Shown here piece by piece: positions 13,479-60,500 of a stretch of 64,000 nucleotides of DNA. Below the pieces are notes generated by a model. The model worked only from the letters and a program-made list of their open reading frames with translations. It ran no database searches and was not told where the DNA came from. Source of the stretch: Candidatus Dojkabacteria bacterium. GTDB lineage: Bacteria > Patescibacteriota > Dojkabacteria > SC72. The stretch is from contig JAXGRK010000002.1 of assembly GCA_040765985.1 (NCBI GenBank), positions 9,940 through 73,939 on the forward strand, in the 5' to 3' direction. Numbering within the stretch: the stretch's first letter is position 1; each line of letters opens with the position of its first letter. The translations under genes were made by a program, and so were the position numbers.

Positions 13479-13489
13479 AATATATTGTA

Positions 13490-16109: not shown

Positions 16110-16122
16110 AAAAAACTATAAC

Positions 16123-17601: not shown

Positions 17602-17623
17602 CGTATATAAAATAATAATTTAT

Positions 17624-19039: not shown

Positions 19040-19057
19040 TTACATATTCTCAAATAT

Positions 19058-28205: not shown

Positions 28206-28251
28206 TGCTATATATATAAAATATTAATAAAAAATTATCATTACATACATA

Positions 28252-28285
28252 CTAAAAAAGGTGAGAAAAACATCTCACCATATCT
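28252..28285 (-). terminator. Intrinsic-terminator-like hairpin (ggtgag-N8-ctcacc followed by T6 on the minus strand)
   Basis: Perfect 6-bp GC-containing stem at 28260-28279 with a U-run 3' on the minus transcript. Lies between the dnaJ remnant and the nusA remnant. Confidence 0.45.
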
Positions 28286-28289
28286 TTAA

Positions 28290-29360: not shown

Positions 29361-30229
29361 TTTAATTTTCTTCTTTTCGAATTCTTGTCTATACCAAGAA
29401 CTTCATAGTAATCTCTTTGTTCATATAGGTGATATTCTAGCAGACAAACGCATTATGCCTACAGATGACATCAAAATCTTTAACTGATAATATATTTAAC
29501 ATGGAAAATGATATACAAATACAAAGAGAAAATGAAAGGAAAATATCTAATACAAAAGAAACTTTCTGTTTTTGTTTTGTTGGGTTATCATTATTTGCCC
29601 AATCTATACCCTTACTCTCTTCATATATCCAAGGAGAGGTTAACATCTTAAAACAGAAACTAATGAAAGATCCTTTGCCAGAATCATATAGGCAGTATAT
29701 TGAAGACCACCTGTATACCATGATCCTGGAGTAAGTTACTTTGCGAATCTTCTCAAATAGTGTTGAAAACCTTAAATACGATGGTCTATTTACATATGAC
29801 CCAACAACTAAAACAACTAGAGAAGTACTTGTAGACAAAAGAGAAAAAGGGCTAAACATGTACATCAATATACCTTCAATAGTTATACTCAATATACTAG
29901 TAACAACTCCTAATGTAGAAAGAAAATGAAGAAGTATAAGATAGATACTCTAAATCTGATTAGCACATTTTAAGGCACCCCTATCCCTGAGATGGAGAAA
30001 CTCCCTTTATATACGGACAGTGCAGTGATAAGTTTTTTTAATAGACACTCTAATCTCCCAGAAACAATATTTACCAAACTTGAGAATGTGGATATTGAGA
30101 TAGTGTAGAGATAGAGAGAGAGGATACTACTCTTTCATATATTGTTAGGAAGTAAAAATTGTTTCTCCAGATGATTTTTCCATTTTGAAAACTCAAGATA
30201 TGAAACTGTAACCTTAATGACTTGTTGGC

Positions 30230-39213: not shown

Positions 39214-40941
39214 ATGGATAGACAGGATAAAGGAACTAAAAAAACATTACGAGCCCTTATCGTTGTAGGAGCCATTCTTCTCTTAACACTAATAGGTGCT
39301 GTCATATATTTTTTCCTCATTGAAAAAAGCGGTACACCATCAGAAGAGGAACAAAGTAAAAGCTGTGGCTGCTATATAATAGATCCAAATGTCTCTAGTG
39401 AATGTGGAGATCCCAAAAGAGCATTCCTCTTTAATCTTAATACTGTATCTTCGGAGGAAACATGTAATGCACAGTGTGATATTAACGAAGTTGCCGATAA
39501 TTTACTTAATAGCAGTACTCCAAGGGAATCATACAAAATTTGTACGATACGAAGTATCTCTGACACTAGGTGTGAGAATATGATTCTTAAAGATCAAGAT
39601 GGTAAAATCATAACTGGAAGAATAAAACCAACTGATGAAATAAATATTGAAGCTACATTTGAGAAATCTACATATACAGATTACATGTTTAAAGTTAACT
39701 CAGAAGACCAAGCCCCAGATAAAGTTGATGGAAATAAAATAACAAAGAAGCTATCTGATTTTAACAATGTAACCTCTGTTGAGATATTTGCTACAGCTAA
39801 AGATTCGCAGGAAGATCAAATCAATTCATTGGTATGTAGAAGAATTGTAGATATAGAATCTACAGGGCAAAGCTCCGTTACAAATCTCGTTGCAATTACC
39901 GAGCAACAAGACGATGGTAAAACAAAAATATCTCAAATAACAATATCTGTTGGACAGATAACTAGTAATAATATAAAAATAAGATTCTCCTTTAGTGGGG
40001 GGTTCTCTGCACTAACAGCAACAGATGGAGTAACAGTTGAACAGGAAAAAGGAGTATTAAGTATGGCAAAACTAGACCTATATGACACATCTAATTTCGC
40101 AAGTGATTCATTTAACATTCTTAATAATCATCTTGGGGATTTAGATATATCTGCAGAGGTTTTTGTCGATGATGTTAGTATAGGATCAGCAAGTACTACA
40201 GTACAATTTAAAGATACTTCAGGAGGAACTGAGCCAGAAACACCAATTACAGAGGATGATAAATCTAATTTCACTGTAACAAAAGTTGCCTCAGAAAGCT
40301 GTTTAGAAAAAGTAGAGAACAGTAATAGAGTTCAATATACAATCTCTGTTACAAACTTAAAAGATGTACAAGATAGTATCGCATCCATTAAGGATAAACT
40401 TCCACTTGGATTCACATATATTGTAAATAGTTCAGTTCTAAATAACACATCTACCTCGGATACAAACTTAGTTTTTGTTACACCTGTAGGAGATTCTCAG
40501 GAAGTTGTCTGGGAACCAGCATCTCCATGGGTTGTACCAGCGAATGGTACTCTGATAATAAATTTTGAAGCACTAGCAGGAGCTAATTCAATAATTGGGG
40601 ATAATCTAAATGAAGTAATTGTTACACCAATTGAAATACCAGCAGATCCTGCAACCTTAAGAGCCCAAGTATCAGTTACTGTTGCCCAAGACTGTAGTAA
40701 TATCCCTGTAACTCCATCTACTGGTATATTTGATACTTTCATAGGAAGAATCTTAGTAGGGATATTTATACTCCTGATTGGTTGGATTATATACTCTAGA
40801 CCTCAAGGTAATTTCATTGCCGAAAGAATAGTGAAATCGAGTATGTATGATGATTTCGAACTAGCAAAATACAGGGTGTTTAATCCAAAGAAATATTTTG
40901 AAGAAAAGATTGTAAGAAGTAAATCTAAAGAGAATCGATAG
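39214..40941 (+). CDS. Type-I-like membrane protein with DUF11-type (conserved repeat) domain, C-terminal TM and cytoplasmic tail
   Basis: 575 aa. N-terminal TM, Cys-rich segment, beta-rich body (VQYTISVTNLKDVQDSIASIKDKLPLGFTYIVN is DUF11-like). TPSTG precedes the C-terminal TM IGRILVGIFILLIGWIIY and a roughly 50 aa basic tail. Confidence 0.55.
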   Translation: MDRQDKGTKKTLRALIVVGAILLLTLIGAVIYFFLIEKSGTPSEEEQSKSCGCYIIDPNVSSECGDPKRAFLFNLNTVSSEETCNAQCDINEVADNLLNSSTPRESYKICTIRSISDTRCENMILKDQDGKIITGRIKPTDEINIEATFEKSTYTDYMFKVNSEDQAPDKVDGNKITKKLSDFNNVTSVEIFATAKDSQEDQINSLVCRRIVDIESTGQSSVTNLVAITEQQDDGKTKISQITISVGQITSNNIKIRFSFSGGFSALTATDGVTVEQEKGVLSMAKLDLYDTSNFASDSFNILNNHLGDLDISAEVFVDDVSIGSASTTVQFKDTSGGTEPETPITEDDKSNFTVTKVASESCLEKVENSNRVQYTISVTNLKDVQDSIASIKDKLPLGFTYIVNSSVLNNTSTSDTNLVFVTPVGDSQEVVWEPASPWVVPANGTLIINFEALAGANSIIGDNLNEVIVTPIEIPADPATLRAQVSVTVAQDCSNIPVTPSTGIFDTFIGRILVGIFILLIGWIIYSRPQGNFIAERIVKSSMYDDFELAKYRVFNPKKYFEEKIVRSKSKENR

Positions 40942-41320
40942 AGAATTGAAGAGGTAAACCATCTTTTCCATAACTATTCCCATTAGACAATATTGAAAAG
41001 TAATACTCCTTTGTACTAACTAACTGTTTTAAAGTAACAATATGTTCCTTACTTAAAGTATCATTCACTAAATCAACCCCTACCAGCTCTAATACTTTCA
41101 TCTCTTTACCATAAAGGATATAACCTGAACACTTCTCTTTACTCCTCCAAAGTATATCTACAGAATTCTCTTGAACACCCTTTCTAATATCAACATTAAA
41201 TGGAGTACAGCCCTCAACATATGCCGATCCTTCAGAACCAGACACTTTAAAAAAGAATATACCTACTACAACAAGTAGTAAACTTAATGCACCCAATGTA
41301 ATATGCCAACTACTCTTCAT
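40925..41320 (-). CDS. Small signal-anchored protein with Fn3-like domain
   Basis: The track ORF starts at a non-ATG codon. The first ATG (41320) gives MKSSWHITLGALSLLLVVVGIFFF... followed by SVDILWRSKEKCSGYILYGKE...YYFSI, Fn3-like strands. Confidence 0.5.
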   Translation of the reverse strand: MKSSWHITLGALSLLLVVVGIFFFKVSGSEGSAYVEGCTPFNVDIRKGVQENSVDILWRSKEKCSGYILYGKEMKVLELVGVDLVNDTLSKEHIVTLKQLVSTKEYYFSILSNGNSYGKDGLPLQFSIDSL

Positions 41321-41741
41321 TTGCTTTAACAATAATATAATCAATTAAATTATAAACATTAGATCTCCCATATATTGTAATCTCTAATTTATGATCCCCA
41401 ATATCTGAAATAGTTGGAATACCATATAAATACCTTCGATCCCTTAATTCGATCCACTCTACACCACTAATAACTATTTCTACTTCCTCTATATTACATC
41501 CTACAATATTTGGAACAAAGTAATACTCTTTTCCAACATAGGCGATATTAGGAATTACATTACTAATATACGGTTTACAACCGGTCTCTTGAATATTTAC
41601 ACCTTTAACACTCTTCGTTACTCTTCTTGATTAAATAGATTGAAGAGACTATTGCTACAGATGGAATTAGAATAAAGCACAGTATAAAGTACTCTCTTTG
41701 TATTAATCATATATAAAATAGTGTATCAATAAAATTTTCTG

Positions 41742-41770
41742 TTTACAAACTCCATTTCAATATATATAAT
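41742..41770 (+). promoter_or_regulatory. Candidate rpsT promoter (TTTACA-N17-TATAAT)
   Basis: tttacaaactccatttcaatatatataat ending roughly 37 nt upstream of the rpsT ATG. Confidence 0.4.
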
Positions 41771-41806
41771 ACAACACAGTTATCAATCATTTTATTAATT
41801 AAGAAA

Positions 41807-42074
41807 ATGCCAAATTTAAAAACATCTATTAAAGATTTAAGAAGTTCAAAGAAAAACCGTTTACAATGACAGATTAAGAAAAAGAGTTAAAGAAATCTGT
41901 TAAGAATTTTACTAACGCATTAAATATCGGAGAAAAGAAGTAAAGCCGAGAAAGTATTAAAAAATGTTTACAAAGTTCTTGACAAAGCAGCTAAGAAAAA
42001 TGTTATAAACAAAGGTAAAGGCAAGTCGAAAAAAATCACGACTTGCAGTTCAACAACAAACTGTCCAAAGATAA
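41807..42074 (+). CDS. rpsT: 30S ribosomal protein S20, frame broken about 4 times within a 268-nt gene
   Basis: MPNLKTSIKDLRSSKKNRL / YNDRLRKRVKE / KSVKNFTNALNIGEKK / AEKVLKNVYKVLDKAAKKNVINKGK / ASRKKSRLAVQQQTVQR* are consecutive S20 segments in alternating frames. Every break is at an A-rich (Lys codon) run. Its stop overlaps the next gene's ATG. Confidence 0.75.
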
Positions 42075-42622
42075 TGTCAAAACTACTCAAAAGAGCTCTT
42101 AAAAATTCTTTAGTACCCGCAATCCTTATGATTGCTGGAAAAGCTTTAGGAATTTTTATAGTAAGTGCAAAATATGGTTTCCCATTAGAAATTGGGAATG
42201 ATCTTAATGGTATTTTCTCAACACAAATATACTTTAATGACATACAAACCACCTACTTTGTTAACTCAGTATCAGATTTAATAATGCTAATAGTAATATC
42301 GGTACCCACTGCTTACCAAATAATTAAGACTGCAATATTTCAATCTACTTTTAGTAACCCTAAAACTATCGTTAAAATAGCGAAATTCAATATGATTCAA
42401 TGGATAACCAGAAACGATACAACATTTCTTAAAATATTTGTATGGTGTGCATTTCTGTGGTTATGTACAGGTGTAATAGTAAAGAATGCTCTCGAAGGAG
42501 ATACTTTTACATGGATAGCCATACTTGCAGGATCTCTCTCTTTACTTTCTGGTTTTGGAGCTTTAAAAACATTTGAAATTGAAATCAATAGGGTATATCC
42601 TGATAGTAAGAAATATTACTAA
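42074..42622 (+). CDS. Polytopic membrane protein (4-5 TM), unknown function
   Basis: 182 aa, intact. Hydrophobic helices throughout. Confidence 0.55.
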   Translation: MSKLLKRALKNSLVPAILMIAGKALGIFIVSAKYGFPLEIGNDLNGIFSTQIYFNDIQTTYFVNSVSDLIMLIVISVPTAYQIIKTAIFQSTFSNPKTIVKIAKFNMIQWITRNDTTFLKIFVWCAFLWLCTGVIVKNALEGDTFTWIAILAGSLSLLSGFGALKTFEIEINRVYPDSKKYY

Positions 42623-43222: not shown

Positions 43223-45046
43223 ATGGTTAATACGAATTTAAATACAATACGCAATTTCTCAATAATTGCACATATAGATCACGGTAAATCTACATTGGCA
43301 GATAGAATACTTGAGCAAGCACATATCGATATCTCAAGAGATAAAAGAGAGTCTCGAATATTAGATAGATTAGATTTAGAACAAGAGAAAGGGATAACGA
43401 TAAAACTACAAGCATGCAGATTGATATGGAAAAATATAGAGCTAAATCTCATAGACACTCCTGGTCATGTAGATTTCTCCTATGAAGTATCTCGATCTCT
43501 TGCTGCTTGTGAGGGAGCACTTCTTCTCATAGATGCCTCACAAGGTGTACAAGCACAAACCATATCTAATACACAAAAAGCCCTAGAGCTTGGATTAACC
43601 TTAATACCAGTAATAAACAAAATTGATTTACCAAATATAAACATCAAAGAGAAAGAAGATGAATTAATTCAATTACTTGGGTTTAAGCGAGAAGAGATTC
43701 TTAAAGTATCTGGTAAAACAGGGGAAGGTATAGAGAAACTTCTAGATACAATCATTGAGAAATGCCCTCCCCCAATTGGAGATATTAACAAACCTCTTAG
43801 AGCTTTAATATTTGATTCTTACTATGACGAACATCGAGGTGTAGTAATAGCAGTAAGAGTGTTTGATGGAAATATAAAATATGTACCTGGAAAATCAGAT
43901 GATCTTTACATATTACAAAGGCAACAACCCTTTAAACCAACAGAGATAGGGATATTTACACCAGATTTAGAAGAAACTACCCAACTATCTGCAGGAGAAG
44001 TTGGATATATAGCTACTGGCTTTAAAGATATTAGTATGTTTACTGTTGGAGACACAGTATCTAATACAAAAGACACATTACCATTAGATGGGTACAAAAC
44101 ACCAAAACCAAATGTATACGCTACATTCTTTCCAGTTACTACAGATCAGTATGAGCCCTTAAAAATTGGCTTAAACAAATTGAGCTTAAATGATGCATCC
44201 CTCTCTTTTTCTGATCAAAGATCAAACCTACTCGGCTCTGGTTTCAGATGTGGCTTCCTTGGGCTTTTACATATGGAAATTATCCAAGAAAGATTAGAAA
44301 GGGAGTATGATGTTGATTTGATAATTACAGCGCCCACAGTAGAGTACAAGGTTACTAAAACAGATGGTACTAAACTTGAGGTTCAAACTCCTCAAGAGAT
44401 ACCCGACCCATCAGAAATATCTGAAATTCAAGAACCATGGGTAAGATTAAAAATTATGACTCCAGATAGATACATGGGACCCCTAATGGAGCTATGTCAA
44501 CATAAAAGAGGAGTATATGTAAATACACAATATCTACCAAACACATCAGGTGACATTCAACTTAAAGATCAATATATTACATTAGAGTATGATATACCAC
44601 TAGCATCTTTAGTATCTAATTTTTTTGATTTACTCAAAAACAGATCTAGTGGATACGCATCAATGGAGTATGAATTTATTGATTTCTTTCCAGTAGATTT
44701 GGTAAAAGTATCGGTTCTTGTAAATCATCAGGAAATACCAGCACTAAGTTTTCTTGAAACAAAAAGTTAGCACAAAGTAAAGCGAATAAATTACTTGAGG
44801 TAATGAAAGAAGAGATTCCTAGACAGCAATTCCCTATTCCATTACAGGCATCTATAGGGGCTAAAATAATTGCAAGAGAAGACGTTAAGGGCTTTAGAAA
44901 AGATGTTACTGCTAAACTATACGGTGGAGACTACACTAGAAGATTAAAATTATTAGAGAAACAGAAGAAAGGTAAAAAAAAGATTGAAAATGATAGGGCA
45001 AGTAAACATCCCTCAAGAAGCGTTCTTAAGTATATTAAAAACATAA
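43223..45046 (+). CDS. lepA: Elongation factor 4 (LepA), C-terminus broken by two apparent 1-nt deletions (about 44760 and about 44965)
   Basis: ORF 43223..44770 has the GTPase motifs ([22 protein letters not shown]) and LepA domains. The C-terminal piece ...[64 protein letters not shown] sits in the frame of track ORF 44803. The final [21 protein letters not shown] is in a third frame after an A8 run. Confidence 0.9.
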
Positions 45047-46116
45047 TGATTAAAAAGCTTACTCTTACAAATTTTAGGAAATTTGAAACTAAAACCCTTG
45101 AGTTTGATAAAAATATCGTTATTTTTTACGGTCATAATGCACAAGGGAAAAGCTCAATACTAGAGGCAATATATTTAATAAACACAGGGATATCTCCATG
45201 GGCTTCAATGAATGAATTCGTAAATATCAATCAGAGCAATCAAATATTTACAAGAATTGAATCTTTAGAAGATGATAAAAGTTTTGTATATTACAAAGAC
45301 GAAGAGAAGAGAATTTTTAAAATAGATGGTAAAAATACAATACCATCTAAATTTTTTGAAAACAGATCTGCAAATATATTTAATCCCGAAAAAATAGAGC
45401 TACTAATGATATCTCCTTCTCAAAGAAGGGAGTTTCTTGATGACACTATACTTAAATATGATTATGAATATCAAACACTAATCAAAGATTTTAAAAAGAT
45501 TTTAAGACAAAGAAATGCATATTTAAAAAAACTAGCCAAACTCTTCTATGATAAAGGTGTAATTGCAATTAACGATCCTCAATTAAATTTCTGGAGTAAT
45601 CATTTTTCATTAACTTCTGCATATATATTACAAAACAGAATTAAATTGATAAAAGAGTTATCTAACAATGAATATGAAATTAAATATAAAACAGATATCG
45701 ATTTTGATAAAGAAAGTTAAATAATATTGAATATCTGAAGAAGTGTTTTGAGAAAGAGTTAGAAAAAAACAAAAGAAGAGATATAGCTACTGGGTATACT
45801 AATGTTGGACCACATAGAGATGATTGGGATATATTAAACGATAGAGACATAAGAAATTCGGTTCAAGGGGAGAAAAAGATTAGCGATAGGTAAACTTATA
45901 TTTGAAACTCAACAAATTATTTTTAATAAAACAAGTAATTACCCTGTACTACTTCTAGATGATATTGCCTCTGAGTTAGATATCTTTAATACTAAAAAAA
46001 TTTTTGATAAAAAATTACTTAATAAACAACAAACATTTATTACTGTCATCGATTACAAATCTCTCCCAAAAAATATTCTCAACAATGCACAACTAATACA
46101 CCTAAATGGTTTATAA
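45046..46116 (+). CDS. recF: DNA replication/repair protein RecF, frame broken twice (about 45715 and about 45880)
   Basis: [45 protein letters not shown] (Walker A). Later ...[14 protein letters not shown] (RecF signature). C-terminal [35 protein letters not shown] (Walker B/D-loop). The three segments lie in three frames joined at A-runs. Confidence 0.8.
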
Positions 46117-46166: not shown

Positions 46167-46937
46167 ATGAGACAACATCCTATACCACAAAATGTCCTTG
46201 ATGTGGAGTTTAAACTCTTTACAAAGTTTACTTTAAAAGAGTTCGTATACCTTGCCATTGGGATAAGTATAGGGGGGATATTTCTCTATTTTACAAGTAA
46301 AGGGCATGTCCCCGGTATTATAGGAATACCCATATTTGTAATATTTTCATCTTTAGGAGCTTTCTTTGCATTAGTCCCTATTAACGATCAACCAGCTGAT
46401 AGGTTTGTATCTAATTTCTTTAACGCTATTAATCAACCTACTCAAAGAGTATGGCTGAACACAGAGTTAAAAAATCAAAAAATGAAGCCCATTTTACAAA
46501 CTCAACAGAAAAAATCTAATATAATAGGAGCGTTTGATATAGGAAAAATTAAGAAACAGCTTTTTAAAGAAAACCCAGGTGATGATATTTTAGAGAATGA
46601 AACTCAAGAGAATATTATTACAATCAATGAAGAAAATATTCATAAATATCAATTCCCTATTAAAAGTGTTGATAGGTTACCCGGAAATATAAATATATGG
46701 TTAATAAATAAAGATAATCAACCGATTCCAAATATAAATACATATCTCAAAGATTCTACTAACAAAATACTTTATGCTAACAAAACAGACAAGAACGGCT
46801 ATTTTATTTCTAACAGAATTTTTCCTGAAGGCATATATAAACTAGAATTTGAAGGAGTAACTGATAGTATGCCAAATATAAATATAGTTTTATCAAAGAA
46901 TATGGGCAAATTACCTTATAAAATAAAAATACTTTAA
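46167..46937 (+). CDS. PrgI-family (VirB3-like) membrane protein fused to a C-terminal carboxypeptidase-regulatory-like beta domain
   Basis: 256 aa. IPQNVLDVEFKLFTKFTLKEFVYLAIGISIGGIFLYF then a second TM fits the PrgI pattern (DL..x..k..g.fT.rQ..yl + 2 TM). C-terminal TDKNGYFISNRIFPEGIYKLEFEG resembles CarboxypepD_reg. Confidence 0.45.
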   Translation: MRQHPIPQNVLDVEFKLFTKFTLKEFVYLAIGISIGGIFLYFTSKGHVPGIIGIPIFVIFSSLGAFFALVPINDQPADRFVSNFFNAINQPTQRVWLNTELKNQKMKPILQTQQKKSNIIGAFDIGKIKKQLFKENPGDDILENETQENIITINEENIHKYQFPIKSVDRLPGNINIWLINKDNQPIPNINTYLKDSTNKILYANKTDKNGYFISNRIFPEGIYKLEFEGVTDSMPNINIVLSKNMGKLPYKIKIL

Positions 46938-47578
46938 TGGATACAAACGCAAGAGCAAGAACAATTTCATCTACACAGGAGCATCTTGAAATAAAAGAGA
47001 TTATTGATGATTTAGTGATAACAAAAAGTGGAAGTGCTGCAATGGTAATACAAACTTCAGCAATCAATTTCGATTTACTTGCTGAATATGAACAAGATAG
47101 TAAGATTACTGCTTTTTCTAGATTACTTAATTCTTTAAATTTTCATATTCAGATTCTAATTAGAACTCGAAGGGTAGATATCTCTAACTATGTTGAGTAT
47201 CTTGTTAATCAAGAAAACAGTACTATGACTGAGGGTCTCAAAAAACAGCTCCATATATATACTAAATTTATTCAGAATCTAATAGTTCAAAATGATGTCT
47301 TAGATAAGAACTTTTTTATAGTAATCCCCTTCAATCCTGCAGGTGAATTACCGGGTATGAGTCTTTTAAGATCTAAAAAAACTAAAGAACAAATAGAGGA
47401 AAATAAACAACTCAAACAAGAACAACTCATTGAGAAAGCAAAAATATTTTTAGCTCCTAAAAGAGATCACATATTAAAACAACTTGTAGGAATGGGAATA
47501 ATGGGACATCAGCTATCTAATAAGGAGCTAATGTCAGAACTATACACTATATATAATCCAGAAGGAGAGATTACTTAA
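46937..47578 (+). CDS. T4SS-associated protein resembling the N-terminal (membrane-proximal) region of VirB4/TrbE-family ATPases
   Basis: 213 aa. LVITKSGSAAMVIQTSAINFDLLAEYEQDSKITAFSRLLNSLNFHIQILIRTRRV parallels the VirB4 N-terminal motif block. A separate ORF (its own stop). The next gene has its own ATG. Confidence 0.4.
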   Translation: MDTNARARTISSTQEHLEIKEIIDDLVITKSGSAAMVIQTSAINFDLLAEYEQDSKITAFSRLLNSLNFHIQILIRTRRVDISNYVEYLVNQENSTMTEGLKKQLHIYTKFIQNLIVQNDVLDKNFFIVIPFNPAGELPGMSLLRSKKTKEQIEENKQLKQEQLIEKAKIFLAPKRDHILKQLVGMGIMGHQLSNKELMSELYTIYNPEGEIT

Positions 47579-47585
47579 CAATAAT

Positions 47586-49954
47586 ATGGAAGATAGTAAA
47601 TACAAATCAAAAACTATGGAGATGTTAGAGAATAAGAGTAGCTCTCTTACCGAGAACAAGTATGTATCTTTTAGGGAGGACTTAAATAAAGAATTAGAAA
47701 CAATAAAAAATAAAGATGATGGTTTAAAAGTAAATAACAAAGAAAGATATAATGAGCCAGAGAAGAAAGAAGAAGAAAAGAATATATTTTTTAAATTCCT
47801 TGATAACTTTATCCCTCAAAAAACAACACCTTCTGCAATCTCTAAAGAACCAAACGAAGCTAGATATGATGGTTTAACTACACAAGATATAATAGCCCCA
47901 ATTGATTTAGAAGTTGATTTTAACACCTTACAGATGGGTAACTATTACTTTAGATCTTTTTTTATAAGTGGATATCAAGATTTGTTGGTCCTAACTGGTT
48001 ATCCCCTATTATTAACTTCGAACATTCTCTTCGAATAAGTACTTTTTACTATCCTGTTGATTCAAAAGTTATTCTAGACAAACTTAGAAAAAAGATTGGA
48101 GAGATGGAAGCAACAATATATGGTCAAATGGAAGAAAAGAAAAGTTGTAGATCCATCTGTGAAAGTAGCACTTTCGATGCTCAACAGTTGCAAGATTCTA
48201 TTGCAGAGGGTACTGAAAAATTCTTTCATTTCACAATGTACATTACTATATACGCACCAACAAAAGAGCTATTAGAAAAATACAGTAGGAATGTTACATC
48301 TACTCTTGCAGCAATTAGTGTAACTGCAAAATCAACAACCTTACAACAGGAACAGGCCTTTATTAGTACTCAACCTATCGGTCTAGACAAGCTATATATT
48401 ACAAGGAATATGGATACTACATCCTTAGCTACTACCTTTCCTTTTGTAACTTCAGAGCTAACTATGGACCATGGAATTATGTATGGAATAAATATGCATA
48501 ATAATAGTTTGGTGATATTTGATAGATTCGAGCTTGAAAATGCTAACACCGTTGTCTTCGCTAAATCAGGTGCAGGTAAAAGCTACTTTGTTAAACTAGA
48601 GGCAATTAGAAGTTTAATGCTTGGCACAGATGTCATTATCATAGATCCTGAAAGAGAATATGAAGATCTTTCTAAGGCCGTAGGTGGGTCATATATATCA
48701 TTCTCACAGGATAAAGGTCACAAGATGAACCCATTCGAACTATCAGGAGTATCTGAAGAGGGTGATGATGAATTAAGAATGAAACTTTTATCACTACAAG
48801 GATTCTTTAAAGTAATGTTTGATGGCTTGAGTAGTATAGAATCCTCTATCCTTGACAGAGCCCTAATATTAACATACAGAGAGAAAGGTATTACCTTTGA
48901 TCCTGATACACAAACAAATACCCCCCCTATGCTTGAAGATCTATACAAGGTGCTAAAGGGTATGGCTGAGAACGAAGCCCATGAGTTGGCTCGAAGGATG
49001 GAGAAATATATCATAGGTAGTGGTGCGGGTGTGTTTAACGAAGCAACTAATTTCGAAATTAAAAATCCATTTACCGTATTTAGTGTTAGAGATTTGCAGG
49101 AAGAACTAAAACCCTTATCAATGTATTTGATGTTGGATTTCATCTGGACAGTAATTCGTAAGAACAAAAAAAGACGACTTCTACTTGTTGATGAGGCCTG
49201 GTATATGATGCAAAGAGAAGACTCTGCTAGATTTATGTACTCGATAGCGAAAAGAGCAAGAAAGTACTACTTAGGTTTAACAACAATAACTCAAGATGTT
49301 GCAGATTTCTTAACTAACGATATGGGAAGAGCAATAATATCAAACTCCTCTCTTCAAATGCTCATGATGCAAAGCCCAACCACTTTAGACAAATTACAGG
49401 AAGTCTTTAATCTTTCTGATGGAGAAAAAACTTTCCTTCTTAACTGTGAAAAAGGTCAAGGACTTTTCTTTGCAGGAGCAAATCATGTGGCCATTCAAGT
49501 GCTATCGAGTGTACAAGAACATGAGTTAATCACTTCTGACCCAAGAGAGTTAGAGCAAAGAAAATTACAAGGAGACAGAGATGAAACAAGAACTATTGAT
49601 GAATTAGCAGCGATATTTGACCCCCCAGCAACACAACAAGCTGTGACAACTGAGACCACAAGAAACAAAACTTTGATTGAAAGAGCCGTTGGAAGAAGAA
49701 AAGAAGATATTGGTGTAATACAACAAGAAACTACTAGATATCAAGAAGAATTAAAGAAGAGATTAGAGGAACAAGAGAGAGAATTAAATCCTAAAAAATA
49801 TGAATCCCAGAAAAGCTTTAATGAGATAATTGAAGAGAATACCATTCCTGGAAAGATTGTTCGGGAAAGAAGAGATATTCAAGAAGGAGTTAGACATATT
49901 ACTCCACAAGGTATAATAGGAGATGACAATGAGCAACAACCAAAACAATATTAG
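47586..49954 (+). CDS. VirB4/TrbE/PrgJ-family conjugal-transfer (type IV secretion) ATPase, frame broken once at about 47981-47990
   Basis: ORF 47586..48038 (...LQMGNYYFRSFFISGYQDL) and ORF 48104..49954 (Walker A VVFAKSGAGKSYFV, DPEREY, Walker B LLLVDEAWYMM) lie in frames joined through an open stretch from 47954. The second frame reads ...GPNWLSPIINFEHSLRISTFYYPVD upstream of the track ATG, the conserved VirB4 G.P.WL..L block. Confidence 0.8.
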
Positions 49955-50137
49955 TAATACGGTTTATCAGTATAATGTCACTACTAATTCTAGTGTCAAT
50001 TACGATAATATCCAAAATACACAAAAACAGAATATATCATCAAAAATTATTAGACCAAGTATATCTAAAAGTCCTCATGGACCTGCCTTAGCAAGAGCTA
50101 TGAAAGCATTGAAATTGGTAAACCCATTTAAAGGAGT

Positions 50138-51276
50138 TTAGCTTAAAGGACCCTGATCTGGAAGTACATACTGCTTTAGATTCTCTGCAGTAATAACAAT
50201 AGGAACTTGTTTACCATTGATAATCTCTCTAGCAGCACTTCTAGCTAAGGTTGCAATGTTTCTTTCTAATTGACGAATACCAGCATCAAATCCAACAGGT
50301 CTAATAAGAAGTGGCCATACCTCTTCTGTAATTTGATATACTCTGGGGATAATCCCATACCTGCAAAAACTCTTGGTAAAATATATGACTTAGCGATCAC
50401 CTCTTTCTCTTTATCTGAATAACTCATAAAACGAATAACTTCCAATCTATCTAGTAGCGCAGCAGAAAGTCCTCCAAGATTATTTGCTGTACAGATAAAA
50501 AGAACTTGTGATAAATCAACAGGATGATCAATATAGTGGTCTACAAAGGTTGAATTCTGTTCAGGATCTAATATCTCTAATAGAGCTGCCATCATATCAT
50601 TATGTAACCCTTGATTTTGACTAGACTTCTCTATTTCATCTACCAAAATAACAGGATTCATTGTACCAGTTCGAACCAGTGCCTTAATTATTTGACCCGG
50701 TTCTGAATCCATCTCGTGCCTTGGTACACCTCTTAGAGTTCTTACATCACCAACAGCACCAAGAGAAATTCTTGCAAATTTTCGTCCCATAGATCTTGCA
50801 ATAGATTGCGCTATAGATGTTTTACCTATACCCTGTAAACCAACAAAAAGAAGTGTAGGAAAAGTTGGAATATTATAATCTTGATTAACCTCTCCTCTTA
50901 CTTTAGTAATCTTTTTTAATTGCATCGTTGCAAGATAGTCCAATATCATCTCCTTTACTGTTTCCATACCGTAATGGGTACCATCCATGATACTTTTGGC
51001 ATTTTGAATATCTAAATTATCCTCAGATACTACACCCCACGGAATTCTTGTTATCCAATCAATATATTTATCTACACCTTCAAATTCAGAGCTATAGTTT
51101 CCCCATTTAGCCATTCTCTCTAATCTTTGAATTACCTTCATACTATCCTCTTTTAATCCTACAGGTACATTAGAACCAGATAATTTATTCTGTAGTTCAA
51201 TAATTTCAGAAATCATATCATTAGAGGTGTTCGTTTGTTGTGTATTATTATTAAAATCCATATCAAAATATATCAT
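50138..51276 (-). CDS. Lon-family AAA+ ATPase module with no protease domain (frame broken once at about 50275)
   Basis: Matches the Lon region from just before Walker A (HYGMETVKEMILDYLA) through Walker A LQGIGKTSIAQSIA, Walker B ILVDEIEK, LLEILDPEQNSTFVDHY and LLDRLEVI. After the frame change it continues PVGFDAGIRQLERNIATLARSAAREIINGKQVPIVITAENLKQYVLPDQGPLS*, then stops. No Ser-Lys protease domain or LON N-domain. Only 37 nt to the next gene upstream. Confidence 0.7.
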
Positions 51277-53199: not shown

Positions 53200-54795
53200 T
53201 TAACTTCTATCTATAAACTGATCTCTAGATGTAGGATCTGGTTTCTCAGTATTAATCAATAAAGGATACCATATACCATCTAAGGAATTTAATAGCTCTA
53301 ACCATTTATACACTAAACTACGATATGAAATATGTCCTCCCCTTCTAACCCTCAAATTAATTGTATATTGCAAATCATCAAAAGAGCCATAGAAAGAGTA
53401 CCTTGTACTATGTGCATGAGGTAGTAAGTACCTAGTATACTCTTTAGACATCTCATCTGACATAAATTGGGTAGATACAACTCTCCACTTTTTAATCATC
53501 TCATATGTTTCGGTTAAACACTTTTCATACTCATCTCTTAAATCCTGTAATTTAGGTATTTCAAGATAGTTGCATAGGAAGAAACAATCTCTACTCTCTC
53601 TATTCAATTCATTATCAATATCTATTTCATCATGGAATAGTGGAATGAACCTCTCTAAACTCCTATGCCTATTTAAATCTTTAAGAGTACCCAGTGTAGC
53701 CATACCCTCTATCTTAATTGCTCCTGATTGACCTAAGTTACCCAATAGGTTGTGATGGTTATGATTTTCAAAAAGTATCTCGCCTAATCTCTGCTCATCC
53801 TCTTGGTCAAACTCCAATTCATATTCACTACCCAAGGGATTAACTAGCAGTTCGTAATGAGTAATTAAATCTTCTACCGCATTAGTATTGTAATCTACAG
53901 TACATGAATCACATTCACATCCCATATTTTCATACTCTCTTTGGTTAGATACCATATTACTTACTTCCTCTAATATCCCTTTAGTTGAATTTTTTCTACA
54001 ACAGTTTGCATCTGTATGTCTAATTAATCCATCTGCTTCTTTAATATACTCTGCCATCTTAATATCTGACTCTCCTAAAAGATTGTAAAGAAGTTTACCC
54101 ACCTCTTTTTCTACTACACTACTACTTGCATTAAAGTATGATATTAACTCAGACCAGTTTCTAGCAGACATTACTGCTGCCATACTGGTTTGTAATCCGT
54201 AAGGAAGTAGATATCTAGCTGTATCAAAGCTTCTAGCTTGTAAAACAGATTTCTCTTCTTTAATATCTTCATTAATATCAAAATACTCTTTTAATACCTC
54301 CTTTGTTTCTTTAAGTAATCTCCTGTAATCTCCCATCTGTTTTAATACAATACTGTCATACTCTTTTCTAATTCCTTCATCCAAACATATCTCTTTTGAT
54401 ATTTTTATGTACTGAGGATTCTCAAAATTCTGATATCTAGTAGATCTCTCTTGACCAGATATTACAGAGTTTGTATAAAAGATCTTCATAGCAGTAAACA
54501 TGGGTATATTCTCAATACAAACAAAAAGGTCTGCCATATCACCTACAGATTTATGACCGTATCCATGAAATATTGATTCTAATCTTTGTGCAGCATCAGT
54601 ATTGTTATCTATAATTTCCTTTGCAATATCAGTAATTGAATCTGCAGACCTACTATACCTAGCACCTAAGTATGCATTAATTGAGGGTTGTTTCTGTTTA
54701 GGGTTTTGTAAAAGAGTATGTGCTTTAAAACTATTCCATTCTGATTCAGATATTAAACTAGCTATCTGTAAATCCTTTCTAAAGGTTCCTTTCAT
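53200..54795 (-). CDS. thyX: FAD-dependent thymidylate synthase ThyX, long form with two ThyX-like halves
   Basis: 531 aa. First half GHKSVGDMADLFVCIENIP...ISGQERSTRY matches the ThyX HxS...RHR..S....S.RY signature. Second half has NRHRSLERFIPL and HAHSTRYSFYGS. About twice the usual ThyX length. Confidence 0.65.
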   Translation of the reverse strand: MKGTFRKDLQIASLISESEWNSFKAHTLLQNPKQKQPSINAYLGARYSRSADSITDIAKEIIDNNTDAAQRLESIFHGYGHKSVGDMADLFVCIENIPMFTAMKIFYTNSVISGQERSTRYQNFENPQYIKISKEICLDEGIRKEYDSIVLKQMGDYRRLLKETKEVLKEYFDINEDIKEEKSVLQARSFDTARYLLPYGLQTSMAAVMSARNWSELISYFNASSSVVEKEVGKLLYNLLGESDIKMAEYIKEADGLIRHTDANCCRKNSTKGILEEVSNMVSNQREYENMGCECDSCTVDYNTNAVEDLITHYELLVNPLGSEYELEFDQEDEQRLGEILFENHNHHNLLGNLGQSGAIKIEGMATLGTLKDLNRHRSLERFIPLFHDEIDIDNELNRESRDCFFLCNYLEIPKLQDLRDEYEKCLTETYEMIKKWRVVSTQFMSDEMSKEYTRYLLPHAHSTRYSFYGSFDDLQYTINLRVRRGGHISYRSLVYKWLELLNSLDGIWYPLLINTEKPDPTSRDQFIDRS

Positions 54796-54805
54796 TAAGT
54801 ATTGA

Positions 54806-56027
54806 TTACAATTTATCTATTCCTGGTATAGGGAAATCTTTAGTAAACTCTTTTACTTCCTCTTTAATTAATTTAATATCTTTTTCTGATTTACTCTTTA
54901 ATGCTCTATCTATATACTCAGCTACTCTTTCCATATCACTCTCTTTCATACCTCTTGTTGTAATAGCGGGTGTACCAATTCTAACTCCCGATGGGTCCCA
55001 AGGTTTTCTTTCATCAAAGGGTATACTGTTTTTGTTCAAAGTAATATTAACACTCTCTAAAATATCAGATACCTCCTTACCACTCATATTTATACTTTTA
55101 ACAGTATCTACTAAAAATAGATGGTTATCTGTACCCCAGATACAATGGTATATCCTTTTTGAATTAAAGAATTAGCCAACGCCTTCGCATTTAATATAAT
55201 CTGTTTAATATCTTTAAACTCATTACTCTTTGCTTCCGTAGCGCAACCGCTATACCAGCAGTTGTATGGTTATGTGGACCCCCTTGACCAGAGAAATACC
55301 GCTTTATCTATTACTTCACCATACTCTCTTACAAAGAATCATTGCCCCTCTTGGCCCTCTTAAGGTTTTGTGTGTAGTAGTAGTCACTACATCTGCAATA
55401 CCCACAGGAAGAGATACTGATCTGCTACAATTAACCCTGCTACATGTGCAATGTCTGCAACAAATATAGCTGCAACTTCATCAGCTATCTTTCTGAACTC
55501 TTTCAATCAATTATTCTTGAATAGGCACTAAATCCACTCCATATTAATTTAGGTCTGTGTTTCTGATCTTTCGCACTTCATCATAATCAATATATCATCT
55601 TTATTTACCCGTAACTTACTGAGTTAAAATATTTACCACTAATTGATACTTAAAACCATGAGTAAGATGGCCACCAGCTGATAGACCCATACCCATTGTT
55701 CTGTCACTGATTTAAAAATGCTAAATGTACTGCTAAGTTAGCAGGCGAACCAGAATATGGTTGTACATTTACATGCTCTGCTTTAAATACCTCTTTAGCC
55801 CTAGATATACACTCCTTTTCAATCTCATCAATATATTCATTACCACCATAGTATCTTTTATCTGGATATCCCTCAGAGTATTTATTTGTAAGAATACTTC
55901 CCATTGCTCTAAGGACATTTTCACTTACATAGTTTTCAGAGGCAATTAACTCTATACCCTCTTTTTGTCTTTTAGCTTCATCCTTTATATATTTAAAAAC
56001 AATATCCTCTTTATACATTCTTTTTGT
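54806..56027 (-). CDS. glyA: Serine hydroxymethyltransferase, central third broken by at least 4-6 frame changes
   Basis: The N-terminal ORF ([37 protein letters not shown]...) and C-terminal ORF ([29 protein letters not shown]) are intact. Between them [94 protein letters not shown] and [10 protein letters not shown] are all present but distributed over three frames. Probable ATG at 56027, overlapping the folD stop. Confidence 0.85.
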
Positions 56028-56855
56028 AAGCATCAATTAAATTACTAAGTAAACATACAATTGTCATTGGTCCAACACCACCTGGAACAGGAGTAATGTA
56101 TGAAACAGTATCTTTAACACTTTCAAAATTAACATCTCCTACCAATTTCCCTTCCTCATTTTTATTCGTCCCTACATCTATTACAACAGCACCCTCTTTT
56201 ATATATTCCCTATCTATATATTCTGGTTTCCTATACCTACAATTAATATATCAGCCATATTACAACTGCTTTAAGATTTGGGGTATGAGAGTGACATACT
56301 GTTACTGTAGCATTTTCATTTTGTAGTAGTGCTGCTACTGGTAATCCAACAATATCCTTTCCAATTACAACTGCTCTTTTCCCATCTATTTCTATTCTGT
56401 ACTCTTCTTAGTAACTCTAATATTCCTTTTGCTGTGGCTGGAGCTATAGCTGATGGATCATTTTTAAAAAGTTTACCTAAATTAACAGATGTTAAACCAT
56501 CTACATCTTTTAATGGAGATATTTTTTCTAAAATATTACTCTCGTTAATTTGCTTTGGTAGTGGTAATTGAACCATTACTCCATCTACATTAGTATCTTT
56601 ATTTAAATCTTCTACCAACTGTATTAACTCACTTTCTTGTACACTTTCTTCAAAGGTATGTACATTACACTGTATTCCTAACTCTTGTGCTTTTTTAGAT
56701 TTCATTTGTACATATTTTTGACTACCGAAATCATTACCTACAAGCAATATATCTAGTTGAGGAACTCTTTTATCTAAATTAAGATACTCCTGTATATCCT
56801 TTTGTATCTTTTCAGATATTTTTAATGCTGTTTGTTTACCATCTAATATTGTCAT
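56020..56855 (-). CDS. folD: Bifunctional methylenetetrahydrofolate dehydrogenase/cyclohydrolase, frame broken at least 3 times
   Basis: The track ORF 56316..56855 is the N-terminal half up to ...[10 protein letters not shown]. Downstream, [64 protein letters not shown] and [53 protein letters not shown]... lie in successive frames. Confidence 0.85.
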
Positions 56856-56911: not shown

Positions 56912-57569
56912 TTACTCTGTATCCCTAATTGCTACTACAACAGTTCTTTTAATATTTGCACCAGCAGGCCAACATGTCATTAAGGTAAGAGTGTCTTGGT
57001 CTAGATATTCACCTAAATACTGTATATCTTTTGGGTCTACAATCTTAACTTCTAGTACTTTGTAAGTATATATATCTCCTTGGTAGCTTACATATAATCA
57101 TCTTTTTCTAATTCATTTAGTAGTAGAAGTATACATTGTACTTCCTTCTTTCATAGAAGTTTACAGCAGAGTGTGCAAACAGAAATACATTTCCTTCTTC
57201 ATTTGGTAGTGCACTTCCTTTAGCGTGTGCTACACCGTATATTAGTGCTGTGCTATACCTTTCCTCATTGTATGGATCTACATTTTTTAATACTTTGGCA
57301 TTAGCTTGTATTTTAGGTATGTAGAGTCCAAAATCACTGTTTACAAACACTATCTCTGTATCTTTTTCAATCTCAGTAGTAATCTCTTCACCTTTAGGGG
57401 TTACTTCTACTTTAATTTCTTCTACTGGTTTAGGAGAGAATTTGTAATCAAAGTATGACCATATTAATGGTTGATATGTAAAAAAAAGAATAACTAATCC
57501 TACAAGAAGTAGTAGGATACCCAGATATTTTGAGTATCCTACTTTTGATTTACTTTTTTCTTCTGACAT
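56912..57569 (-). CDS. Sortase (transpeptidase), frame broken twice near 57060-57116
   Basis: The track ORF 57117..57584 has an N-terminal TM, beta strands and the catalytic His region GVAHAKGSALPNEEGNVFLFAHS. After two frame changes the sequence continues ...LNELEKDDY / LYVSYQGDIYTYKVLEVKIVDPKDIQYLGEYLDQDTLTLMTCWPAGANIKRTVVVAIRDTE*, with the TLxTC catalytic Cys and the conserved Arg. The start is probably the second Met (57569). Confidence 0.8.
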
Positions 57570-60500
57570 ATGAGTATCCTGCACTTCCTAATACTACCAC
57601 TGCTGCTGCAATTATTACATACTTATATTTATTCCAGAAAGTTTCGTCTGTATCATCTTCTTCTCCATCTTTATCCTCTCCATTCTCTTCATCTTCATCT
57701 CCTTTTACCTCTCCGTTGTCTTCTTCCTCTTGGTCAGGATTCTCTTCACCTTCCTCGCCCGCAGTAGTCTCCTCTCCTGCTACCTCTCCTGTTTCTCCAT
57801 TAACAGTAACTGTTGTTGCAGTTGTTCCTTGTATTACTGTTACAATATTATCTGTAACAAAGCTAGAGAAGTTTCCTAAATCATCTAATGCTCTAATTGC
57901 ATAGTAGTACTCTTTAGTACAGTCTAATGGGTCATCATCTGCATATGTTACAGCTGTGTTTGGCCCAACTGTTAATGTATCAATTAATGTAGAAGCGTTA
58001 GCTGTAAATGGTTGTGTGCTTGATCTAAATATTTCTACTTTAGATGTTCTACCATCATTTGCTGTTTTAAATGAAAGTGTATATTTACATGTACCTTCTG
58101 TTTTTGCATAGTTTATTACTGGTAGTGGTTTCTCAAGTACGACCTCCACTGAAACAGTACTAGATATGTTTTCATCACCACCAGCCTTTGCTTTTACATA
58201 GAAATCATAGGTACCACTTGTAGTAACTAATGCTGGGGTAACTTCACAGTTACCACTGTTAGTAGCATATGTACCAAAGAGAATACCGTCTTTATAACAC
58301 TCTACTGTTACTGTTCTATTTTGTAAATCCAATGCTACAAATCCTATCTTGAAAGTATTCTTATTAGTAGGAGTTACTGGTTGCTCAATTCTTACATCAA
58401 TATCTGCTACCGATGCATATGTAGGTAGGGGTTTTAGTATAAAGAACATACTAAATAGGACTACTCCTGCAATAAATAGGTTTTTAATTCTTTTCTTTGG
58501 ATTAAATACTAATAGAATGAATCCTAATATCATCGATATTAATGCTCCTAATGTTATATATGTATCTGCACCTGTTCTAGGTAGAGTAATCGCTGCACCT
58601 AACACTTCTCCTTCTTCTATTTCAGGATCGTTCTCTACTTTAACTTGAGTACCTACGAAGTATTTACCCACAATACCATCGTTTATCTCAAAGCCCGAAC
58701 CTTCAGATATCGCAAGTAGGTTTGATCCCATTATTCCTATTCCTTTTGCATAGGCAAGGTCAGGATATTTACCTGCATCAACAAGATCTGTTACCAAAGC
58801 TTTATACGTTATTGTAACTATTTCACCCACAAGTATCTTTCCTAATTCCCACTTTCCAGGTGAGGAATACTTCACTGCAGAGATATCTAAAATTCCTCTT
58901 ACATTTGATATTGCTCTAAATGTACCTGATTGGGGTATGAAGCCTTCAGGAGGGAGATCTATGAGGATTACATTGTTTACTGAACTCTTTTCTGCTCTAA
59001 CTTTTATTGTATATGTTACTGTATCACCAATTGCTAGAGTATTTGGCCAACTATCATTTGTTTTACTTATATACAATTCTGATTTTTGAACATTACCTAT
59101 GTAACAGGACCTATTATCTCCAGAAGAAACTTCTAAGTTATATGCATTATTATTGTAAATACCATTTTCTAAAATAGGTGATGATATTGCTCTATCAACT
59201 TCAGCTCCATTAGAACAGTATATGTCGGTAACACCCATAACTGGACATCCTGGCCTATTATCCCAATTCATATCGATACTCCCTCTCGAGTTAAATAAGT
59301 TACAGTCACTAAACTCTGGACATGTTTTCTGTTCTCCAAATGATACTAGATTACTATACCCATTAACTTCACATGCCCATTGAGCACATGTTTGAGCATC
59401 ACCACAACCATTCCATCCAGAACAAGCACCATGATGCCCATATGCTTCTCTAGGAGAGGTTATCAAGACTCCTTCTCTGTCATCCTCACAATATATTCCA
59501 GTTTGATCCCAACCATCTTTCATACTCTCACTTAGAACATATGAATCAGGAAGTAAACTGAACTTCGTACTTCCGTCAATATCTGTAATCTGACTATATC
59601 CCTCTTCTTCAATCTTGGATATATTTATTTCCCAATCGGATAGGAAAGATTCTCCTTCATCAAGTACACCATTAGCATTTAGGTCATTAAACTTGTAAAC
59701 AGTAATACTACCTTTTTGAAGATTTCCAAACTTGTATGTTGGTCCCTCAACTGCATTTACTTGGTCAAGAAAACCTTTAGGATTTTCATCTGGCAAAGTT
59801 ATAGTATGACAATTATTTCCCTCATTTATAGGGTATGTCTGAACCCAACCATCTTGTAATTCCTCACAAACGGTATATTCACCAAGTTTTAAATCTTCAA
59901 ACCAATACCATCCTAGATGATCTTCATTGTCAGTTAACATATATCTCTCACCTTCATCAAATTGACTATTTTCATTTTCATCAATGAATATCTTCCAATT
60001 ACCCAACAAAGGTTCTAATTCACACTGTTCCATTGCTCTGTTTTGAGCTAAAGATCGGACATCATCATACATTTCTTCTCCTATACAGTTTCTCTCTCCA
60101 TCTCCATTTATATCGCTCCATTTATACCCATGTATATCTCCTGTAGATTGAGTGTTAAATGCAACACAGTAATATGTTTGACCATATTCTGGTCTATTTA
60201 ACCATTCCCAGTTGTCATAGTTTGCAACATCTTTGTCACAGTAAAATTCTGCAGAGAAATCATCTGAGTTATTATTGTTGTTATATGTAAATGGTATGTA
60301 GTTTTCTTGGAGTACTTCTCTTAATTCAATTCTACTTCCCTTAAGATTATTAATCTTAGCTATTGCTATTCCTTCTTCACCAACTGCACTAAATGTATTC
60401 CAATCCTCACCTCCATATCCTATATATTCATCACCGGGGTTTCCTGCTCCTTGATATCCCCATTCAAATTCCCAGGTTGGTTCTAACCTACAGTGTCCTT

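Follow-up and report, generated by a model that had tools for sequence, protein, structure and literature searches.

The stretch of DNA analysed here (the window) comprises 64,000 nt of contig JAXGRK010000002.1 (positions 9,940–73,939) in assembly GCA_040765985.1 of a Candidatus Dojkabacteria bacterium (WS6, Patescibacteria). Four closely spaced genes on the plus strand occupy positions 46167–50141 of the window, and they very probably represent the conserved, vertically inherited chromosomal core of a type IV secretion system (T4SS) of the Patescibacteria type, a relative of the monoderm conjugation machinery of mating-pair formation type FATA (MPF-FATA) that is no longer tied to the mobilisation of DNA. 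A preliminary description of this DNA, made from the sequence alone, had recognized three co-directional genes encoding a PrgI/VirB3-like protein, a protein resembling the N-terminal part of VirB4 and a VirB4-family ATPase. The three genes are found at the coordinates described and lie on the plus strand. The third is not a single open reading frame (ORF), a frameshift having been overlooked, and a conserved fourth gene at 49923–50141 had been missed. The genes and their features are the following.

46167–46937, plus strand: ORF1, PrgI/VirB3-like membrane protein with a C-terminal beta-sandwich, 256 aa (PF12666; AlphaFold2 model)
46233–46373, plus strand: transmembrane hairpin of ORF1, residues 23–69, with helices 23–44 and 50–69 and a five-residue loop (AlphaFold2 and hydropathy)
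46479–46607, plus strand: low-complexity linker of ORF1 rich in K, Q, N and E, residues 105–147 (predicted local distance difference test score, pLDDT, <50; variable in the alignment)
46614–46928, plus strand: transthyretin/CarboxypepD_reg-like beta-sandwich of ORF1, residues 150–254 (pLDDT ~88; Foldseek)
46937–47578, plus strand: ORF2, TrsD/PF26593 'TraC-like' protein, 213 aa, soluble, remotely like the N-terminal domain of VirB4
47586–49954, plus strand: ORF3, VirB4-family ATPase, 789 aa once repaired (NF045971, PF19044, PF12846, PF01935, PDB 4ag5)
47967–48001, plus strand: SGY(P)RFVGPNWL block of ORF3 containing the frameshift (a C is absent after 47976 and the Pro codon CCA reads C-A)
48560–48583, plus strand: Walker A motif of ORF3, AKSGAGKS
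49178–49201, plus strand: Walker B motif of ORF3, LLLVDEAW
49923–50141, plus strand: fourth gene, encoding a small soluble protein of 72 aa, or of 70 aa if the ATG at 49929 is the start

The genes are tightly packed. The stop codon of ORF1 and the ATG of ORF2 overlap in TAATG, the gap between ORF2 and ORF3 is 7 nt, the fourth gene overlaps the 3′ end of virB4 by 32 nt, and its stop is one base apart from the stop of a convergent lon-like gene (~50143). The GC content of the module, ~0.29–0.35, is the same as that of its flanks. Scans of the 64-kb window revealed no tRNA genes and no Rfam matches, while promoter and terminator scans of 45.9–50.4 kb gave nothing beyond what was obtained from shuffled sequence.

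For comparison with related organisms, 80 loci were kept out of 184 confirmed relatives, their VirB4 proteins being 57–87% identical. These loci come from metagenome-assembled genomes labelled Dojkabacteria or WS6, in some cases Saccharibacteria or Patescibacteria group, or left unclassified; relatives named Dojkabacteria or WS6 dominate both the locus search and the search for ORF1 homologs, and the homologs of ORF2 have the same origin.

The ATPase gene, ORF3, is present in the window as two frames, 47586–48038 and 48104–49954 (the second frame being open from 47954), and its overall span of 2369 nt is no multiple of 3. The break is a deletion of one nucleotide (CC to C at 47976) inside the VirB4 signature, where the window reads GGATATC-AAGATTTGTTGGTCCTAACTGG. 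With a C put back after 47976 (GGATATC^AAGA), SGYPRFVGPNWL is obtained, together with a protein of 789 aa; the sequence of the repaired site is SGYPRFVGPNWLSPIINF. Intact virB4 genes were observed in 63–71 relatives. At the break site, 63 relatives have GGN TAY CCN MGN in frame, and in 7 of these the sequence is exactly GGATATCCAAGA.

Against NF045971 (VirB4, CD1110 family), for which the cut-off is 325, the protein reaches 396 bits once repaired, and the alignment spans profile positions 163–733 of 752, the first ~160 positions being without counterpart in ORF3. It also matches PF19044, PF12846 and PF01935, as well as the solved C-terminal domain of VirB4 (PDB 4ag5) with E=1.2e-49, and it reaches 110 bits on TIGR00929, where the cut-off is 643. 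Both Walker motifs are intact. The ATPase of roughly 800 aa that had been proposed is therefore supported in its family and its motifs, on condition that the missing nucleotide is supplied. The first ~90 residues are of low complexity, and residues 88–631 align to 218–770 of an 804-aa single-chain VirB4. From this alignment it follows that ORF3 is without ~217 N-terminal residues of a classical VirB4, approximately the size of ORF2.

The quality of the assembly has a direct bearing on the frameshift. Parts of the region are covered by two independent contigs, L081 and L086, which were assembled from short reads of near-identical strains (98% identity). In L081 the 3′ part of recF is intact, and the window is short of single bases at 45709 (AAAA to AAA), 45853 (GG to G) and 45874 (A6 to A5). 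In L086, which covers 48472–51108, the sole indel is GG to G at ~50335, precisely at the break of the lon-like ORF. These deletions, three in recF and one in the lon-like gene, sit in homopolymers or dinucleotides. Further breaks are spread over the window: lepA carries two frameshifts and recF several, pnp is split at 24309–24322, infB is truncated, dnaJ-like fragments lie at 28.2–29.4 kb, and glyA is split. The stretches with split housekeeping genes are 22877–24980, 25434–29400, 43223–46115, 50143–51276 and 54806–56036. An alternative genetic code was considered as the cause of the split genes and rejected, the breaks being frame changes and not in-frame TGA codons. The assembly resembles one made from long reads without polishing, in which apparent pseudogenes are unreliable and not to be accepted at face value. 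In all likelihood the virB4 frameshift is an assembly error as well, since the independent short-read contigs do not share the similar deletions that affect recF and the lon-like gene, and since 63 relatives keep the in-frame CCN codon at the virB4 site.

ORF1 had been described as a PrgI-family N-terminus with two transmembrane segments, paired with a carboxypeptidase-regulatory-like beta-sandwich, and both halves were recovered. PF12666 (PrgI) scores 30.7 bits, above the gathering threshold of 27, over residues 5–95 and profile positions 1–90 of 91. In the AlphaFold2 model, for which 45 homologs served as input and which has a mean pLDDT of 74, the two helices of the hairpin were predicted with pLDDT 87–92, and the hydropathy peaks lie at 26–44 and 51–69. 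Lysine and arginine residues cluster in the N-terminal flank and in the flank that follows the second transmembrane helix. Two short helices were modelled within 77–105, the linker is disordered, and residues 150–254 fold confidently as a beta-sandwich. A Foldseek comparison of this sandwich with the PDB returned transthyretins, the CnaB2 domain 8bdw (TMt 0.63) and the C-domains of carboxypeptidases D, N and M, with E ~1e-4. By sequence, the C-terminus matches CarboxypepD_reg with E=0.029 and SdrD_B with E=0.043, both under the cut-off; on PF13620 (CarboxypepD_reg) the protein of the window reaches 15.1 bits, the gathering threshold being 32.3. The carboxypeptidase-regulatory-like assignment is right as a fold, with a sequence score under the Pfam cut-off. 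In the alignment of the C-terminal domain the motif LPGNINIW...TGPNGYF is invariant.

Full-length homologs of ORF1 number 420, all of them from Dojkabacteria where named; exact look-ups of ORF1 and ORF2 returned no record. When the N-terminal 105 residues were searched against a representative library of 1.84 billion proteins, 1,533 clusters were obtained, and the best 150 matches are 66–776 aa long, the majority well above 200 aa. PrgI was found in all 72 sampled members of the ORF1 type, and CarboxypepD_reg (PF13620) in 51 of the 72 at E<0.01, the best value being 3.6e-13. The linker between PrgI and the sandwich is 30–540 aa long in the homologs and is either of low complexity, rich in P, T, S and Q, or coiled-coil. 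A cassette made of a PrgI protein with CarboxypepD_reg, a TraC-like protein (233 aa) and VirB4 was also observed in two distant Patescibacteria, one of them labelled 'Patescibacteria group bacterium', adjoining dnaN-jag-yidC-yidD-rnpA-rpmH in the origin region; the PrgI members in these cassettes are 615 and 690 aa long. The two distant cassettes (L082, 8001–12920, and L084, 8001–13632) have upstream a protein of 1,050–1,070 aa that combines epimerase and DUF4012. The fusion of PrgI with CarboxypepD_reg is the common architecture of this PrgI subfamily, and the earlier view of it as non-standard does not hold. No description of the fusion and its spread was found in the searchable literature.

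The beta-sandwich of ORF1 is probably on the cytoplasmic side. This is suggested by the loop of only five residues between the helices together with the K/R-rich flanks, by the existence of VirB3–VirB4 fusions (PMC12102498), and by a natural fusion on the Embleya plasmid NZ_CP108778.1, which puts PrgI extensions on the VirB4 side. The Embleya protein (L092, 6648–7697), a 349-aa 'PrgI family protein', consists of a PrgI hairpin and a TrsD-like domain (hhalign 92%, E=5e-7), and it bears on the topology of PrgI as well as on the origin of TrsD. An XF1762-family ORF of Embleya was tried as the TrsD equivalent and discarded, as it has no similarity.

ORF2 matches, weakly but specifically, the TrsD/TraD model NF041427 with E=2.2e-6 and positions 101–283 of the Mycoplasma-type VirB4 model NF045975 with E=1.8e-6, while ORF3 covers positions 211–892 of the latter. 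The resemblance to the N-terminal block of VirB4 noted earlier is borne out by these matches. The homologs of ORF2 have PF26593 'TraC-like', and judged by sequence similarity ORF2 appears to be a remote TrsD homolog, better named after PF26593. Its column identity among relatives is 82%, with invariant motifs. The best structural neighbour of the ORF2 model is TrwK/VirB4, and the ORF2 profile gave no match when compared with PDB sequences. A remote origin as a detached N-terminal segment of VirB4 is plausible; in the literature, too, the relation of TrsD to the VirB4 N-segment is described as remote. The preliminary description regarded a separate gene of this kind as unusual, a view that was not upheld: no T4SS component is commoner in Patescibacteria than TrsD, which also belongs to the usual gene set of the pGO1 subclass (PMC12102498), and a homolog of ORF2 is also present on a Firmicutes plasmid (see below).

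Directly 3′ of virB4, an ORF ending in NPF[KR]G was found in 72 of the 81 sequences formed by the 80 related loci and the window. The alignment of this fourth gene reveals the motifs YLVT, DL..L.KAE and, at the C-terminus, AL.L.NPF[KR]G, in which N, P, F and G are invariant. It belongs to no Pfam or NCBIfam family, and in a profile search it was met only as 'hypothetical protein' in WS6/Dojkabacteria. It is not present in the cassette of the two distant Patescibacteria loci, and the searchable literature yielded no description of such an NPF[KR]G protein.

The surroundings of the module are conserved to a similar degree. Some 50 long loci from species-level genomes have the same order of genes, namely holA, a DUF11-like gene (575 aa), an fn3 gene on the minus strand, a gene for a 182-aa membrane protein, lepA, recF, ORF1, ORF2, virB4, the lon-like gene on the minus strand, sufS, dcd and thyX, and throughout the class Dojkabacteria the module of these loci keeps its place between recF and the lon-like gene. 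In 60–70 species-level relatives none of the four genes is broken, and all of them clearly show purifying selection. A few relatives have extra DNA beside the module, which encodes an ABC transporter, nucleotidyltransferase-like proteins and other unrelated products and contains no T4SS parts. Pfam and NCBIfam scans of the window ORFs of at least 110 aa found no relaxase, VirD4/type IV coupling protein (T4CP), integrase, VirB6 or pilin family, as had been proposed for the relaxase, VirD4 and pilin in the vicinity of the module. A crude transmembrane scan of the window ORFs of at least 60 aa showed nothing resembling these components either. The conserved synteny and the lack of mobility genes among the ORFs scanned indicate that the module is vertically inherited and is not an integrative and conjugative element (ICE). 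An origin from an ICE or a plasmid was rejected on the conserved synteny, the lack of mobility genes among the ORFs scanned, the flank-like composition and the absence of a tRNA gene. The earlier statements that this is a Gram-positive-style T4SS core embedded among housekeeping genes, and that it is not a conjugative element, agree with the MPF-FATA-related VirB4, with the conserved gene order in ~50 Dojkabacteria genomes and with the absence of relaxase, T4CP and integrase families from the ORFs scanned in the 64 kb.

Several neighbours deserve mention in their own right. In every Dojkabacteria locus that was examined, the lon-like gene (50143–51276, minus strand) adjoins the module on its downstream side. 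In the window only the Lon AAA+ module was matched (TIGR00763, positions 254–530 of 795); in relatives the product is ~380–410 aa long and apparently without the N-terminal and protease domains. Upstream of lepA, at 39214–42622, lie the genes of a 575-aa DUF11-repeat protein with N- and C-terminal transmembrane segments, a 139-aa fn3 protein on the minus strand and a 182-aa protein with 4–5 transmembrane segments and no family. This envelope trio is syntenic with the module across the class, and it has no demonstrated link to the T4SS. On the minus strand at 12510–20671 there is a run of large ORFs of 322, 799, 492 and 471 aa without a Pfam or NCBIfam family, followed by a 537-aa protein with fn3 and purple-acid-phosphatase-N domains. 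The 492-aa protein (16123–17601) has ~7–8 transmembrane segments; neither it nor its large neighbours could be assigned to a family or connected with the module, and the run may be surface or membrane machinery. A surface protein of 2066 aa (57117–63750, minus strand) has SpaA, SdrD_B, DUF11 and DUF7507 domains and an LPXTG anchor, and belongs to the same fold class as the C-terminus of ORF1; a sortase-like gene adjoins it. ThyX (53200–54795, minus strand) is unusually long, with 531 aa and two Thy1 stretches, and may be a duplicated or fused form. The GC skew tracks the coding strand, being strongly negative at 1–30 kb and 50–64 kb, where the genes are on the minus strand, and near zero or positive at 30–50 kb. 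The strand switches are divergent at ~30 kb and convergent at ~50 kb, where the T4SS module ends.

The closest description of such a module is found in the work of Quinonero-Coronel (2025; PMC12102498), in which a relaxase-free chromosomal set of PrgI, TrsD and VirB4 is the T4SS of Patescibacteria and the VirB4 proteins form a clade related to MPF-FATA. The same study describes a wide distribution of PrgI/VirB3, a near absence of relaxases and loci that are often close to dnaA and dnaN, as well as the scarcity of VirB6 in some classes and the existence of VirB3–VirB4 fusions. Its dataset includes Dojkabacteria genomes scored VirB4-positive, and the preprint version names Dojkabacteria. Transposon sequencing by Wang (2023; PMC10633639) revealed that the T4SS cluster SEML1_0006-0019 is essential for the epibiotic growth of Ca. 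Southlakia epibionticum, a cluster in which coupling and relaxase proteins were not recognisable. The T4SSs of Patescibacteria have been reviewed as well (PMC12857230). The locus of the window shares with these systems an MPF-FATA-type VirB4 beside TrsD and PrgI/VirB3, the chromosomal position among replication and translation genes and the lack of a relaxase, whereas the VirB6, the array of VirB2-like pilins and the wall hydrolases of the Saccharimonadia cluster have no adjacent counterparts at the Dojkabacteria locus. The association of such modules with host interaction in episymbionts, which the preliminary description had mentioned, is in line with the published work (PMC10633639, PMC12102498). 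Therefore, the locus is a rediscovery of a published system and no new kind of system. Two details were not found in the papers searched, namely the spread of the fusion of PrgI with the beta-sandwich and the NPF[KR]G protein of Dojkabacteria.

Among plasmid-borne systems, TrsC-TrsD-TrsE of pGO1/pSK41 have the same order of a VirB3-like protein, a separate TrsD and VirB4. These plasmids differ in carrying a relaxase, a T4CP and a hydrolase and in the short VirB3-like protein, and the TrsD score of ORF2 is far below the cut-off. The best plasmid VirB4 matches to ORF3 are of the CD1110 family, from Firmicutes and Actinobacteria, with 30–37% identity. In the CD1110/CTn2-type cluster on the Brevibacillus plasmid NZ_CP144923.1, VirB4 is 33% identical over 563 residues and PrgI lies directly upstream; here, however, PrgI has 136 aa and no extension, VirB4 is a single chain of 804 aa, and VirD4 (CD1115) and NlpC/P60 are present. 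The closest plasmid VirB4 proteins (~36%) are those of Pontibacillus (NZ_CP062975.1) and Embleya, and they are short, 621–643 aa. On the Pontibacillus plasmid, which is from Firmicutes, a 274-aa ORF upstream is a clear homolog of ORF2 (hhalign 99.3%, E=9e-21). No CarboxypepD_reg domain was detected on the PrgI proteins of Pontibacillus or Embleya. Embleya differs further by its complete conjugative-type set with a TrbL-like protein, a T4CP, a replication-relaxation protein and NlpC/P60. With VirB3 and VirB4 of R388 and Agrobacterium the module has in common a two-helix VirB3-like anchor and the VirB4 ATPase, but these are diderm systems with VirB6–VirB11, a pilus and an outer-membrane core, and the sequence similarity is very low.

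From the known VirB3 and VirB4 families, the PrgI hairpin of ORF1 would hold a hexamer of VirB4 at the cytoplasmic membrane. Approximately the N-terminal VirB4 segment that ORF3 is without would be provided by TrsD as a polypeptide of its own, and the ORF1 sandwich would most likely adjoin VirB4 and TrsD on the cytoplasmic side as a docking or regulatory module. Hydrolysis of ATP by VirB4 would then drive the assembly and use of a channel, and perhaps a pilus, whose components would be encoded at other places of the genome. In this way macromolecules would pass between the epibiont and its host cell, the function being host interaction and not conjugation.

Several points weigh against the interpretation as a T4SS core or against parts of it. 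Neither the 64 kb nor, in relatives, the 10 kb on either side yielded a VirB6, a VirB2-like pilin, a VirB1-like wall hydrolase or a coupling protein, and a complete machine is therefore not demonstrated for Dojkabacteria. As to ORF2, the NF041427 score is 27.7 bits, far under the curated cut-off of 200, and the model is of moderate confidence (pLDDT 64). ORF2 has no profile similarity to the N-terminus of the single-chain CD1110 VirB4, and a recent duplication of the N-domain of its own VirB4 was rejected at an hhalign probability of 0.05%. No independent contig over 47976 was obtained by exact look-ups or by two metagenome scans for the site, and a real inactivating mutation of virB4 in this strain is also conceivable. 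CarboxypepD_reg/CnaB-type domains and P/T/S/Q-rich linkers are usually extracytoplasmic, contrary to the position favoured here for the C-terminus of ORF1. Moreover, we know of no substrate for any Patescibacteria T4SS.

The last but one of these points leads to a different view of ORF1, in which the sandwich is exposed outside the cell via the linker and acts as a wall-spanning stalk or adhesin of the apparatus, the hairpin being N-out/C-out. The transthyretin, CnaB, SdrD_B and CarboxypepD_reg fold class is typical for bacterial surface proteins, and the 2066-aa LPXTG protein of the same window has the same families. In addition, the linkers of the homologs, with their 30–540 residues and their P/T/S/Q-rich or coiled-coil character, resemble wall-spanning regions, and monoderm T4SSs are without a known wall-spanning part. 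Nevertheless, ORF1 has no signal peptide, the five-residue loop and the K/R-rich flanks favour N-in/C-in, and the VirB3–VirB4 fusions together with the PrgI–TrsD fusion of Embleya place C-terminal extensions of PrgI in the cytoplasm. We hold an external sandwich to be unlikely. If the sandwich is cytoplasmic, it might be a docking module for substrates or partners that, with TrsD and in Dojkabacteria also the NPF[KR]G protein, replaces the recruiting role of the coupling protein; this specific proposal is tentative, and we consider it unlikely.

The module as a whole could also be a machine for the import of host nucleic acid or other macromolecules, in the manner of a competence-type translocon or of the Ced system of archaea, instead of an exporter of effectors. 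The competence-like translocon suggested in the preliminary description was neither supported nor contradicted by the analysis. Among DNA-import ATPases, CedB (E=7e-16) and CedD are weakly matched by ORF3, although the 57.9 bits on CedB are far under both its cut-off of 700 and the CD1110 score, and reflect only the shared ATPase fold. There are no relaxase or T4CP genes nearby, Patescibacteria rely on their hosts for nucleotides, the T4SS loci of the class ABY1 co-localise with comF, recG and radA, and a 2026 preprint (10.64898/2026.06.21.733656) reports that a Minisyncoccota parasite acquires host RNA, and describes possible T4SS pili. In Southlakia, however, competence needs type IV pili as well as comEC, whose deletion does not affect viability (PMC12857230), which means that DNA uptake for nucleotide supply is not the essential role in this organism. 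Taken together, we find an import machine improbable. A decaying remnant of an integrated conjugative element, with virB4 a true pseudogene and the module non-functional, would account for the frameshift in the window and for the presence of just three or four T4SS genes with no T4CP, relaxase, VirB6 or hydrolase nearby. It is hardly compatible with four genes kept intact under purifying selection in 60–70 species-level relatives and with their fixed position among housekeeping genes. Furthermore, essential genes of the window (lepA, recF, pnp, infB, dnaJ, glyA and the lon-like gene) carry 1-nt deletions like that of virB4, and two of them are intact in the independent contigs. Decay of the module is thus very improbable indeed, and a conserved chromosomal T4SS core is the reading that we retain.

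Before that of the Patescibacteria, no T4SS had been shown to be essential for its own carrier, and the class Dojkabacteria keeps a very compact and strictly syntenic core of four genes. The sandwich tethered to a VirB3-like anchor and the small NPF[KR]G protein are candidates for the docking of partners or substrates. If the docking role should prove true, it would provide a concrete handle on what is transported by a system without which the epibiotic lifestyle is not possible.

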